A DNA stretch of 58,725 nt from a virus (lineage: Duplodnaviria; Heunggongvirae; Uroviricota; Caudoviricetes): IMG/VR virus record IMGVR_UViG_2718218104_000006. One strand, given 5' to 3'. Every line of letters starts with the position of its first letter. The stretch's first letter is position 1. Below, piece after piece: positions 39,001-45,000 of the stretch. The position numbers are program-made.

Positions 39001-42000
39001 ACGCCGGTCTTCTTTAATCTTGAAATACAGGTTCGTCAGATATGTCAGCAGCCCAAACAGCAGACTCCCCAGCACGCCTATCGCCACCCACTGGGACGGA
39101 GAGACTTTGTCCAGCAGCTGCAGTAACCAGTATCCCGTCCCCACCGCTGACGTGGTGTATGACACACCTGTTGTGATTTTTTCCATCTGATGTATGTCTC
39201 CGTCACCGCCGACAGAAAATGAAAGTAAAGAAAAACAAAAAAGCCGCCAGTGTCACCCACTGACGGCCAACGCCGGGAGCCGTGATTATGGCATTCAGGC
39301 TCTGCTAAAAATGCCAGATAACATTCCGGCCACCCCCTGATTCAGGTTATAAATGACACAATATCTTGACAACACCCGTCACTGTCTGTCAGAAAATATA
39401 CCGCCAGGCATAAGTATCATGTGAAATCCAACTATCCTTCTGAGCCAGCACCTCTCCACCGAAAGTCAGTGCTGGCTGTTTTTTTCCTTAATAAAGCATC
39501 TGTAACTGAAACAATCCGCATATTGATAATATATTGACAGGCATCATTGCTGTCTGTGAAAAATAAGTCTCTACAAACATATAAGGCCTTTTAGCCAGCG
39601 TCTTCTTTCAGGTCAGTCGCTGGCTCTTTTTTTATTATGCTGCCGGTGCATTTATCTCCAGCACCAGACTTTCTATCTCAACGCCATACGCTGCATTTTT
39701 TGTAACATCCGTCAGCGTCAGCGCATTCAGTCCCAGTGTCAGACTGTCTTTTATAACCTGGAATGCCGGGCCAGCCACTCCATTCAGTTTCGGAGTAACC
39801 GTGGCACTGCCGGCGGTGAACACCAGCTCCAGCGTCTGCCAGTCGTTACCGTAATCGCCGAACTCCCCCAGCTTCGTGTTTCCGGCTTTCCTGTGATGCA
39901 TCAGATTCACTCTGCCGTCAGTGGTCTGAGTAAAGTACGACATCAGGAACGGATTACCGGTACCCGTCATCGCCACACCATCAGGAACGGGAGCATCCGT
40001 ATACAGATAAATCCCCAGCCCGAACTGATTGTTGGTCAGCGCGCCTGACAGGCGGAACTTACAGGTCAGTCTGCCGCCCTGTGTCAGCAGGGTAATTGCG
40101 TCATCCACCGGATGCGTCAGGGACCAGGTTTTATTGCTCTGCCTGGTGATCTTAAATACACCATCTGACAACTGAATTCCGCCATCCTTAATGCTCCAGC
40201 CCTGCGCAGCAGCCTCTCCGGCTGCCGGCAGCAGGGAGATTGTGCGAACGGACGTATCTGCAGACGGACCCGATGGCGTGTTGCCGCCGGGCGAGGGTTT
40301 GATTTCCGGTGCCTTACCACTGATGAAGGCTGAGGTGCGCCCGGCTGCGTTCAGAATAGCGGTTGCCAGACGATCCGGAATAATGCTCCTGCGCGCCCAT
40401 GAACTGAAATGTGTCGGGCGGTTTGATGATACCTGGTTTCCATTCGTTCTCGATGCCGCACCGTAATATCCTGATGCCGGAATATCCGGATCTTCTGCCG
40501 GCGCGTTAGTGGCGGTATTGACGCCGTTACCGTCTGTCATGAAGGGCACAAAATAAACGCCCTCACTCTCCCTGTTTTTATACCCGCCGTACACGGTGTC
40601 GTACTGGGTAGCGTATGTATTTTTCCAGTAATACGTCGTGTCACCACAAATCCACGGCACATCTGCAGCACTGCCACCATGGCACTGCGCGTTAAACACG
40701 GAGAGGTCAGCACGAAACTGTGCCAGCATGGCTGTAAACAGCGCAGGTTGCTGTGCGTGGGTGGCGGCGCTCATGTCAAACTCTCCCTGCATCCAGCACA
40801 CCGCCAGCAACACATTTTTCGGGTTCTTCTGTAATGCAGCTTTAGTGCGCGCAATCAGGTCCTGATATAACGGTTTACCCACACCCCAGCGCGCCGAATC
40901 CTGGCTGGCCCCCGCGTCCGCACTGAATGTCCCCTCCGCGCCCTGGGTGAATGCCGAACCACCACGACAGCATGGTACCAGCAGGATCCCCGCGTTATTC
41001 GGGATATACGGAAGCAGTTTTTTGGCAATATGTAAGCCCTGGCCGACACAGCCGTACTGCCCTTTGCTCAGGTCTGCCTTCGGATGATTCAGCGTACTCA
41101 TATCCTGCACATCATGCAGGCAGTGGTCGGCCGGAATAATATCGTTATATCTGCAGGCAGCCCCACCCGGCGTAACTGTACTGCGGCGCGCCAGCTGTTT
41201 AATGCGCGGATCCGGAGCATCGTATGAATCCGGCAGCGGAAGCCCTTCACCGTAAGCCATGGCATTGGACTGCCCGGCCAGTACGATGACGTAGTACCAA
41301 TCCGGCTCAGTTGCACCACTGACCACCACATCACCTTCTGCTGTAATCACCTGCATCAGGGTATAAGGGGTTATGGCCACCGGACTACCAAACGGCTGCC
41401 AGCCCTCTTTCAGTTTGTGTGTCAGCTTTTCCGCAAGGTCTGACGGCGACGCCGCCCTGACAACATCATAATGTTTAAATGTCATTATTCCTCCCCTTTC
41501 CGGGATTTTCCTCAACAGTTGCGGGCCACGGTCCGGCCACAAGGAGAATCAAAAGAGGAGAACCGCAGCCCGCAAAACGAAAAAGGCCGCGCAGTTGCGC
41601 AGCCTTATAAACCCTGGTTAAAATCCACACGATAAAAATGACAATGCAAGTATCTCATGCTGTTGCCCGAACCCACTCGGGCTTTTTTTTGCATGTAAAA
41701 AGGCTCCTGCGATGAGAAGCCTGGATATATGCCTAATCTCTGTATACAGCATGATGCCGGGTGCCTCCCGGTGAATTCTGCAATGACCAGACAGAATCCG
41801 CAACTTGCCTATACAATACGCAACCAAACATCTGTCATTATGCCCCGCCGCTCAGGGGGATTCATCATGCAGGATTTTTTTAACAAACGCTCAGCATGTC
41901 AGGCAACAGTCAACTGCCTGAATTGTGAGGCATTTAACATTTCACTGTCCGGTGTCTTTCCTGTAATAAAAAGCCCGCAAAAGAGAGTCAGGGCAGATAA

Positions 42001-45000
42001 GTGTGGTGTGGTGCGTTGTACTGGATTCGAACCAGTGACCGATTGCTTAGAAGGCAATTGCTCTGTCCGGCTGAGCTAACAACGCAGAATACCGATAATG
42101 GACCGCCACCGGGGACTCCGAATCTCGCACAGGGTGACGTTCTTTCCTGATGAGCTAGTGGCGGTTGGTGGCCCTTGCTGGATTTGAACCAGCGACCTGG
42201 CGATTATGAGTCGCTCGCTCTCACCGCTGAGCTAAAGGGCCGATTGCTGAATAATAACGACGCATGATTAACTCCGCAATCTCATCCGTTACGAATGATT
42301 AAATCCTGTACTTCCCGCACCGTCTGCTCAAAACGTTCAGTCTCCAGTTCAACGCCAGTTGCACGACGTCCCAGCGCCATCGCTGCTTTCACTGTCGACC
42401 CCGACCCCGACCCCATGAAGAAATCTGCAACCAGGTCTCCCGGACGACTGCTTGCGCTGATTATCTGCTGCAACATTTCTGCCGGTTTTTCGCACGGATG
42501 TTTCCCTGGATAGTACTGCACCGGTTTATACGTCCACACATCGGTGTACGGCACCTGCACCGTCACACCGAAATACCGCCGCAGATGCTTATATTCACTC
42601 TGCAGCTCCGCATACTGTCGGTTCAGAGAGGCATACGTATCCACCAGCTGGTGGTGGGGCTTTTCCAGTTCACCCCGCTGATGCTTCTCTTCTGCCACCC
42701 GGGCAAACAGTGCCTGTAATTTCAGATAATCGCTTTCGTTTGGCAGCTGCCACTGACCGGCACTGAACCAGTGCGACACCATGTTTTTCTTTCCTGTGGC
42801 ATCTGCAATCTGTTTTGCCGTTATCCCCGGGACAGCGCGCGCATCACGAAAGTAAGCAATCAGCGGGGCCATCACATGCTGTTTCAGTGTCCTACCCTTC
42901 GCCTCATACCCGGCATCTTTCGGACGATACGGCCCCTGATAATGCTCTGCGAACAGAATGCGCTCTGTGGCGGGGAAATACGCCCGCAGGCTTTCCTTGT
43001 TGCACCCGTTCCAGCGTCCGGACGGCTTTGCCCAGATGATATGGTTCAGCACGTTAAACCGCTCACGCATCATGATTTCGGTGTCAGATGCCAGACGATG
43101 GCCACAGAACAGGTAAAGACTTCCGGCAGGTTTCAGCACCCGCCAGAACTGCGCAAGACACTGGTCCAGCCACTTCAGGTAATCTTCATCACCCGCCCAC
43201 TGGTTATCCCAGCCCTCGGGTTTCACTTTGAAGTACGGCGGGTCCGTGACTATCAGGTCAACAGAATTTTCGGGTAACGACCGCATAAATTCCAGGCAGT
43301 CGGCGTTGATTAACTCACAACTGGATATTTTTACAGTATTAAGCATGGATCATTAAGCCTGTCTCTGATAGGCTCATTCTGCTTTTGCGCAAAGCAGTGG
43401 GCCTGAGGTTTGCTTGTGAACCCAACGCATGAGCAGATGGCTGGTGGGTGCCCCTTACACCCACCAGCCGCCCATTTACCACAAATAAAAAAGCCTTCAG
43501 GACTGAAGGCGTCTGTAACAACCAAACTGATAGTCTGCCAGACCCGCCATAACCAGCTGGGTCAGTATTAACTGGCAGCGTTCGCGTGAAAGGTAAGTAT
43601 TCTGCGCAATCTCCCCGACTGTCGCCGGGTCGGTAACGCTTAATTCATTAAACACCACTCTGGCGGTTTCTGTCATATCCTGCTGTTTCAGCATGTCTTT
43701 TTCCCTTTTCCGGTTAACGTGACACACCAATAACTCTTGTCGAAAAAGCCAGCAACCTGAAAGAACGGTATTAATAACCACCAGCGAATTTATTGCGCTG
43801 CTGTATATTACGGACACAAAAAAACCACCTTCCGGTGGCTTCCTTGTGCGAAAAAACTTGCATTTCGCCTCGCGATACAGCTTTGCGAAGCTTACAGGAA
43901 TTCAAGCTGTTTCTGCGTAAAAAAGCAAGCTTTTTTTATCGAAATGAATCGTGCATAGGTACATAAAGCATGTGTTCAGCCACGGCTAACCAACCTGCAA
44001 TACGTTTCTCACATGTGCTGAAACACCATTCCGGGTGAGTACGATTTAAACATTCTGCCATTTTTCTCTTACTCATTCCCCGTCCTTCGTACCTTTGCCG
44101 GAGAATATTGATTAGCCCGGGATATTCCCCAAGCACCTCACTGATAACGCGATCAATAATCAACGCCTCTGTGTCTGTACAATGTGACAACCAGCTCTTC
44201 TGCTTCCCTCTGGTCATATCCCGAAAAAATGCCTCAAGTTCCGGTTTTTCCAGCCCGGATTTCTTCATGCTGCGTAAAACCTCATTAACTGCTGTTTTCG
44301 TCAGCTTTTTCGAAACCAGTAACCGGTTAAACATATTTCCGGATTTACCCCCACCGATATACGACCACCGCCCCCACATCCGTAATTTCCCCTGGATCCA
44401 GACTGCTTCCAGCGTGTTCAGGCGTAAATGTTCGCCGCTTTTGCCTGTAATTTCCGGATATATCATATTTACGCTCACTCACTCTCAATTTTGTAAATCT
44501 TCACACCCAGCCGTCCACCAGATACTGGCTGACCACGTACAATATTGATTTCATCAAACTGCTCATCGTCCATTAACACTCCCGCATGCGTCAGCGCATC
44601 CAGCGGTGCTTTCAGAATATTGTCCAGGTCACGACGACGCTTATCCGGTGGCTCTGCAATAATTTTTATTGCCAGCCGTCCGGACAGGCTTAATTTCAGT
44701 CGCTGCTGGCGAACAATAAGCACCACTGCCCGGCGATAACGCTCCCCGGCTTTTGATACAAAATATGTGCTGCCACGGCGTCGCCAGTAAGTGTTCACCG
44801 TCGGCGGGTAAGGTAAAACCAAATCTATGAGCATCAGTCACCTCTTTTACCCGAGCACGCCAGTCGCAAAGGCGTGATCAAGAAAACGAAAAATTAAATC
44901 AACCTGGGAACCATGCTTTTCTTCGAACGCCAGCGGATCCGCATGAAGCTCGTTGTGATGCTCCCGACACAGCGGTAGCGTGAAAATATCGTGGGATTTT

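Follow-up and report, generated by a model that had tools for sequence, protein, structure and literature searches.

The locus described here lies in a 58,725-nucleotide stretch of Caudoviricetes DNA (IMG/VR record IMGVR_UViG_2718218104_000006), which as a whole is called the window. Judged by its sequence identity, the window is the Escherichia coli O157:H7 lambdoid prophage Sp9 in reverse orientation, and its late genes are therefore on the minus strand. Over 41400-42300, the window matches Sp9 of strain Sakai at 100% identity; that prophage carries the RefSeq label "prophage Sp9; lambda-like phage" and is inserted beside ompW. The 797-bp region covered by an earlier reading of this DNA from sequence alone (the original prediction) is present with at least 99% identity in 355 E. 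coli records, and the top matches are O157:H7 records at 100%. The window departs from the Sakai copy by an insertion sequence, IS629, at 37575-38884 and by a different spacer between esterase and holin.

Along the late strand (-), the order is a Q-like antiterminator, a DNA methylase, tRNA-Ile2(CAU), a dead middle tRNA, tRNA-Arg(UCU), a 35-bp filler, an STnc100-type small RNA (sRNA), the opposing sRNA EcOnc03 (+), a second late terminator, a NanS-p esterase, and the lysis genes. This is the Q - tRNA cluster - slot - esterase - lysis layout of Shiga toxin (Stx)-converting prophages. The original prediction had recognized the layout of a toxin site, and the flanks indeed align to the sequences that border the stx2 cassette on either side in Sp5 and in Stx2c phages. 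Stx-converting prophages carry stxA and stxB between argO and the STnc100-type sRNA; at this locus, neither gene is found there. We read the region as the late-region accessory ("moron") site of Sp9, occupied by an sRNA pair and a tRNA pseudogene and devoid of stx, and put the probability of this reading at about 0.9.

A convergent pair of small RNA genes

EcOnc03: This short sRNA of the AgvB/AsxR family is encoded at 41630-41690 on the plus strand. The Rfam AgvB model (RF02702) matches 41630-41689 (+) over its full length (1-62) with 56.6 bits against a gathering threshold of 56, while the AsxR model (RF02703) scores 46.8 bits against a threshold of 63. As the AsxR gathering score is not reached, EcOnc03 is a member of the family but not AsxR itself. 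It agrees almost perfectly with the family models from AGUAUCUCAUGC through the U-tract and diverges at the 5' end. The published 51-nt sequence of EcOnc03 (AAATGACAATGCAAGTATCTCATGCTGTTGCCCGAACCCACTCGGGCTTTT) is found exactly at 41636-41686. Its location is also that of the family, as the gene abuts a convergent STnc100 match and has the tRNAs and the methylase upstream and NanS-p downstream.

EcOnc03 terminator: The terminator scan places a GC-rich 6-bp stem at 41665-41682, followed by T8 at 41683-41690. It agrees with the original prediction of a plus-strand terminator (41665-41690) facing against late transcription. The further proposal that this terminator may end an unannotated small RNA is right in that it ends EcOnc03, but the sRNA is unannotated only in RefSeq and was published in 2014. 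The hairpin and T8 could instead be a bidirectional terminator or insulator against transcription entering the late operon from downstream, rather than the end of an sRNA. They do lie back to back with a minus-strand terminator at 41701-41722, resembling a convergent terminator pair. However, the upstream 60 nt match the AgvB/AsxR model over its full length, and the same 60 nt are identical to a primary transcript verified by northern blot and mapped by rapid amplification of cDNA ends (5' RACE). On the minus strand, moreover, the hairpin is preceded by A8 and no T-run follows it, so it is not an intrinsic terminator there. We consider an insulator exceedingly improbable.

EcOnc03 promoter: A putative sigma-70 promoter can be read from the sequence at 41595-41624 (+), with a -35 element TTGCGC (41595-41600), an 18-nt spacer, and a -10 element TAAAAT (41619-41624). 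This position was not listed by the consensus promoter scan. It fits the 5' ends that Tree et al. (2014) mapped for the primary transcript.

Expression in strain Sakai: In a study that crosslinked Hfq to RNA in O157 Sakai, EcOnc03 of Sp9 was detected (Tree et al. 2014, PMC4104026). It was the third most abundant unannotated Hfq-bound sRNA of that strain. Its evidence there consists of northern bands of 56, ~54, and 51 nt, triphosphate 5' ends by 5' RACE, and Hfq crosslinking and analysis of cDNA (CRAC), and the RNA is destabilized in an hfq deletion. The four most abundant new sRNAs were AgvB1 and AgvB2 (Sp10 and Sp17), AsxR (Sp5), and EcOnc03 (Sp9), which have a common 3' region of ~42 nt and a differing 5' region of 14-18 nt. 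AgvB blocks GcvB via mimicry of GcvB mRNA targets, and AsxR destabilizes FnrS (Tree et al. 2014).

STnc100-type sRNA: The partner on the minus strand, at 41691-41899, is an STnc100-family sRNA and corresponds to EcOnc28 of Sp9. Rfam RF02076 matches with 175.2 bits against a gathering threshold of 47 (model positions 1-206 of 206, E = 7e-40). According to the terminator scan, the stem of its own terminator is at 41701-41722 (-). An Hfq CRAC peak for EcOnc28 on the other strand of Sp9 is given in Table S2 of Tree et al. (2014), who found convergent sRNA pairs "3' of PR' in the moron insertion site" in Sp3, 4, 5, 9, 10, 11, 15, and 17. The homologue in Sp5 gave northern signals of 235/247 nt, longer than the 206-nt model (Tree et al. 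2014). EcOnc27, also called sRNA103, is the STnc100-type RNA downstream of stx2B, and effects on fimZ and espA have been reported for sRNA103 only. A recent preprint relates the STnc100-type RNA to PasD, which lies upstream of the sialate esterase (Zhu, Shabalina & Storz 2026). A promoter-like CTGACA-17-AAAAAT at 41902-41874 was considered as the start of the STnc100-type RNA and rejected, as it sits inside the Rfam model.

Second late-strand terminator: Between the sRNA pair and the esterase, the scan calls another intrinsic terminator at 41583-41606 (-), with a 10-bp stem followed by a T-run and a fold z-score of -3.19. It falls in the stretch 41928-41403, which aligns to Sp5 at 77% identity.

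Both sRNA genes are thus present and intact. Several points weigh against the favoured reading of the locus. The AgvB match barely exceeds its gathering threshold. The 5' end of EcOnc03, CGAUAAAAAUGACAAUGCAAG, contains neither the CACAACA motif that mimics GcvB targets nor the AsxR 5' sequence. EcOnc03 therefore lacks the GcvB R1 mimic in the 5' region by which AgvB in the strict sense is defined, and because both 5' motifs are missing, sponge activity is an extrapolation from its relatives. The expression and Hfq evidence for EcOnc03 comes from Sakai, whose EcOnc03 sequence is identical to that of the window. The 5' end of the STnc100-type RNA and the promoters of both sRNAs are putative.

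The partner screen adds to these points. We used RNAduplex to pair the 5' 21 nt of EcOnc03 with 18 core sRNAs of MG1655 (K-12) and with its own STnc100-type partner; the screen ignored accessibility and included no mRNAs. Within this set no partner stood out, and none of the 18 core sRNAs surpassed the shuffled controls. GcvB was the best at -11.5 kcal/mol (z = 0.04), followed by MicC at -10.5 and ArcZ at -10.3 kcal/mol, and all p values were above 0.15. Of the two controls, AgvB had GcvB as its clear top partner (-19.5 versus -10.9 kcal/mol for the runner-up), and AsxR ranked FnrS first, weakly. In the literature searched, in which Tree et al. (2014) alone mention EcOnc03, no target is reported for it.

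How the pair might work can be sketched from these observations and from its relatives. In the lysogen, EcOnc03 would be made from its own promoter, TTGCGC-18-TAAAAT, and its variable 5' 14-18 nt would pair with another RNA on Hfq, by analogy with AgvB and AsxR. Until Q-modified polymerase coming from pR' reads past them, the two late-strand terminators would prevent expression of the esterase and lysis genes, and the resulting read-through transcript would be complementary to EcOnc03 along its whole length. It is conceivable, though in our view unlikely, that EcOnc03 acts differently from AgvB and AsxR, either on an mRNA target or in cis on Q-dependent late transcripts. The latter must cross the EcOnc03 gene and so would carry a perfect 61-nt complement of it. 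If this were true, the convergent pair could couple sRNA output in the lysogen to prophage induction, by mutual titration or by cleavage with RNase III ahead of the esterase and lysis genes. A 2021 review called the reason for the dyad arrangement unclear.

The stx2 position and its filler

No stx sequence was recovered from the window. Neither tblastn with Stx2A and Stx2B nor blastn with the whole stx2 cassette gave a significant match anywhere in it. The three longest open reading frames (ORFs) in 41471-42079 (116, 69, and 54 amino acids) had no Pfam match at E <= 0.1. On these negatives, we rejected a hidden toxin or protein gene in the spacer, and the original statement that the DNA between tRNA-Arg and the esterase holds neither a protein-like ORF nor stx is borne out.

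35-bp filler: The true "empty slot" is the segment at 41929-41963 (strand unassigned), which was delimited by the BLAST junctions with the Stx2c phages and Sp5 and takes the place of the stx2 cassette. Against Sp5, homology of the tRNA cluster extends to 42009 and restarts at 41928, which is 46 nt past the stx2B stop codon. Against two Stx2c phages, it extends to 41964 and again restarts at 41928. Given these breakpoints, the 1339-1376-bp stx2 cassette is replaced here by 35 bp. The slot measures 35 bp relative to the Stx2c phages and 80 bp relative to Sp5. Comparison with the Stx2c phages suggests that the sRNA genes are bordered by recombination breakpoints. The filler has no similarity to the stx cassette, and because it has nothing in common with the cassette ends, a simple deletion scar does not account for it. 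In the stx-less phage phi296, this filler recurs with one mismatch, and the Lahn2 alignment is continuous across the stretch.

Left edge of the slot: In the conserved post-tRNA segment at 41964-42008 (-), a T-run comes after a short GC hairpin (GCGGGCTTTTTAT). We rejected this hairpin as a terminator since it is weak and was not called by the terminator scan; the segment is retained as the conserved edge of the stx slot.

Right edge of the slot: All phages compared (Sp5, 2851, Stx2c_PV98-693, phi296, and Lahn2) have STnc100 after the slot, whether or not they carry a toxin. In Sp5 and phage 2851, it lies 75 nt past stx2B; in phi296 and Lahn2, it comes after the filler. Among these phages, an AsxR-type partner is found in Sp5 only.

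These comparisons bear on whether the spacer is inert debris, left after an ancestral Stx phage lost its toxin genes. The absence of stx and of a protein-like ORF would fit such a history, as would the adjoining decayed tRNA and a backbone related to Stx2c phages, which carry the identical tRNA remnant. Against it, about half of the spacer is occupied by two sRNA genes that have intact terminators and score above the curated Rfam thresholds, and both sRNAs were detected Hfq-bound in Sakai. The filler, too, bears no likeness to the ends of the stx cassette and occurs as the same allele in the stx-less phi296. Debris is thus largely refuted, and we regard it as highly unlikely. The description of the toxin position as "empty" needs the corresponding amendment: it is without a toxin but not empty, as the sRNA pair takes ~270 bp of the 523-bp spacer. 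A vacant slot does exist; it is only the filler segment described above and is not an stx remnant.

The tRNA cluster and flanking genes

tRNA-Ile2(CAU): The tRNA at 42166-42241 (-) was found by ARAGORN and by the Rfam tRNA model (70.9 bits). ARAGORN labels it Met, whereas RefSeq labels it tRNA-Ile or ileZ3 (TR01, Sakai). It is an ileZ-type tRNA-Ile2 with the anticodon CAU, which is lysidine-modified and reads AUA.

tRNA-Arg(UCU): The argO-type tRNA at 42009-42085 (-) was likewise found by ARAGORN and Rfam (71.4 bits) and is annotated as argO3 in Sakai. The two intact tRNAs presumably supply decoding of AUA and AGA, a role we take from established knowledge of Stx phage 933W.

Middle tRNA: The original prediction also held that a third tRNA had decayed between the two intact ones, and this is upheld by homology. 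ARAGORN calls only the CAU and UCU tRNAs, and the Rfam tRNA model (RF00005) finds no third one between them at E <= 10. We aligned the clusters of Lahn2 (annotated ileZ-argN-argO), phi296, Sakai Sp5, and phage 2851 and of two loci in which the middle tRNA is called Lys(UUU). In every cluster aligned, 42099-42164 (-) matches the middle tRNA, in both its argN Arg(UCG) and its "Lys(UUU)" forms. Since this homology to intact middle-slot tRNAs holds column by column, the remnant is not a chance inverted repeat. On this alignment, 42099-42164 is a decayed tRNA homologue at the argN position, a pseudogene without an anticodon arm. The halves CCGCCAC (42103-42109) and GTGGCGG (42158-42164) form the 7-bp acceptor stem, which is kept together with the discriminator and CCA. 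A deletion of 12 nt has taken out the anticodon loop along with the 3' half of its stem; the D-stem and the T-stem have one G-to-A change each, and the T-loop has 1 additional nt.

The body of the remnant is nearer to the "Lys(UUU)" form than to argN(UCG). Relative to argN of Lahn2, the acceptor stem has changed from T..A to C..G, which we considered as compensatory evolution and rejected. The intact "Lys(UUU)" form already has CCGCCAC/GTGGCGG, so the change is inherited. The identical allele is shared by 380 E. coli records, among them one from an O111:H8 strain, and by at least three records of Stx2c-converting phages (LC727876, LC727883, and LC727890), and it is therefore older than this prophage. 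A search of the literature on the ileZ/argN/argO cluster and on truncated argN yielded nothing useful.

The remnant could instead be a functional tRNA-like RNA, such as a processed, CCA-ended acceptor/T-arm minihelix or a spacer for processing of the tRNA precursor. The intact 7-8-bp acceptor stem, discriminator, and encoded CCA speak for this, and so does the spread of an allele that is 100% identical across those E. coli records and the Stx2c-converting phages. However, the anticodon arm is gone, the D- and T-stems have mismatches, and the T-loop has its additional base. The fold of the remnant does not improve on that of shuffled sequence (z = -1.07), and the acceptor helix alone survives. 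There is no sequence variation with which selection could be tested, and other defects elsewhere, namely C33 in the "Lys(UUU)" form and a D-arm deletion in PPompW_EH1910, indicate relaxed constraint. A functional tRNA-like RNA is accordingly very improbable in our estimate, and we keep the assignment as a pseudogene.

The middle slot shows variation in related phages as well (L009:1512-1588, L007:1512-1587, and L008:3012-3088). Stx2 phages have Arg(UCG) there and other prophages have "Lys(UUU)", on a clearly homologous body, which looks like an anticodon switch. At position 33, nearly always U in tRNAs, the "Lys(UUU)" form has C. Intact middle-slot versions reach Rfam tRNA scores of 43-55 bits versus 68-74 for their neighbours, and in PPompW_EH1910, the middle tRNA has a 1-nt D-arm deletion and falls below the Rfam threshold. 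From these comparisons, the slot looks loosely constrained overall. In a separate comparison, positions 1877-3706 of Stx2c_PV98-693 (LC727876) align to window positions 43801-41964; the methylase-tRNA segment is ~81% identical and the tRNA remnant 100%.

Methylase: The gene upstream of the tRNA cluster, at 42282-43346 (-), encodes an N6/N4 DNA methyltransferase (Pfam N6_N4_Mtase, 2e-41; RefSeq annotation). Between it and the Q-like gene, a strong late-strand terminator (GCCTTCAGTCCTGAAGGC followed by T6) lies at 43493-43510 (-). It is a candidate for tR', and a short StxS-type leader RNA from pR' possibly ends there.

Esterase: The conserved ORF downstream of the slot, at 39635-41485 (-), encodes a NanS-p-type sialate O-acetylesterase of 616 amino acids from ATG (Pfam DUF1737, SASA, and DUF6645), and its counterparts in related phages are annotated as NanS or yjhS. 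In strain TR01 (O157:H7), the locus region 5180-6000, which corresponds to 39635-41485 of the window, is annotated as two NanS-p pseudogene fragments. This suggests an internal deletion in TR01; the esterase gene is intact in the window.

Esterase-holin spacer: No alignment to Sakai Sp9 was obtained for the segment at 39187-39634, which is 95-98% identical to the Stx1a phages H-19B and YYZ-2008 and partially matches phage 2B8. A strong late-strand terminator lies at 39268-39242. The 2026 preprint on Pas sRNAs names YYZ-2008 (PasA) and 2B8 (PasC/PasD) as representatives and places PasA and PasC at the esterase-holin position. The segment is probably a third sRNA gene of the late region.

Holin and IS629: The holin gene is at 38980-39186 (-). 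Just beyond it, within the ydfR-like gene that separates holin from endolysin in Sakai Sp9, a complete copy of IS629/IS1203 has inserted. The copy is 99.8% identical to that of Sakai Sp5 and carries an Rfam ALIL frameshift element at 37910-38026. The insertion probably cuts the lysis cassette off from late transcription.

hok/sok: In the early-right region, a sok antitoxin RNA of a hok/sok type I toxin-antitoxin module (Rfam, 103.9 bits) lies at 46874-47023 (-), and hokD is annotated at the corresponding place in strain TR01.

Relation to known systems

The sRNA pair at exactly this site of exactly this prophage was published in 2014 and its family is in Rfam, so that nothing about it is new. 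As both sRNA genes had already been described in Sp9, the finding is real but ordinary. Its discovery value is small, its practical value is in annotation, and the tRNA pseudogene is a minor point of annotation. RefSeq records show just two tRNAs here; readers of these records therefore see an "empty" spacer over two Hfq-binding sRNAs and a tRNA pseudogene.

AgvB/AsxR family: EcOnc03 of the window is identical to EcOnc03 of Sp9 and has the conserved ~42-nt 3' region and the terminator in common with AgvB (EcOnc01) and AsxR (EcOnc02). It also corresponds to the Rfam families RF02702 and RF02703 in place, in orientation (running antisense to the late transcripts and converging on an STnc100-type RNA), and in its size class of 51-60 nt. 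It differs from AgvB and AsxR in its 5' variable region, AAAAAUGACAAUGCA, which has neither CACAACA nor the FnrS-pairing sequence.

STnc100: The minus-strand sRNA occupies the same position as EcOnc27/sRNA103, directly after the stx slot and directly upstream of the sialate esterase. Unlike the copy in Sp5, it follows the 35-bp filler instead of stx2B, and the identity over the flanking stretch is ~77%.

ileZ-argN-argO: The tRNA cluster has the order, spacing, and flanks of those in 933W, Sp5, Lahn2, and phage 2851, and ileZ and argO are intact and nearly identical. It differs from them in its middle tRNA, which is dead through the 12-nt deletion.

Stx2 phages: In contrast to this prophage, the Stx2c phages have no AgvB/AsxR match at gathering level. 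Where this prophage has 35 bp, the Stx2c phages and Sp5 carry a stx2 cassette of 1.34-1.38 kb. Stx2c_PV98-693 (LC727876), phage 2851 (FM180578), and Sp5 (Stx2a) otherwise have the same methylase-tRNA-slot-STnc100-esterase architecture as the locus described here.

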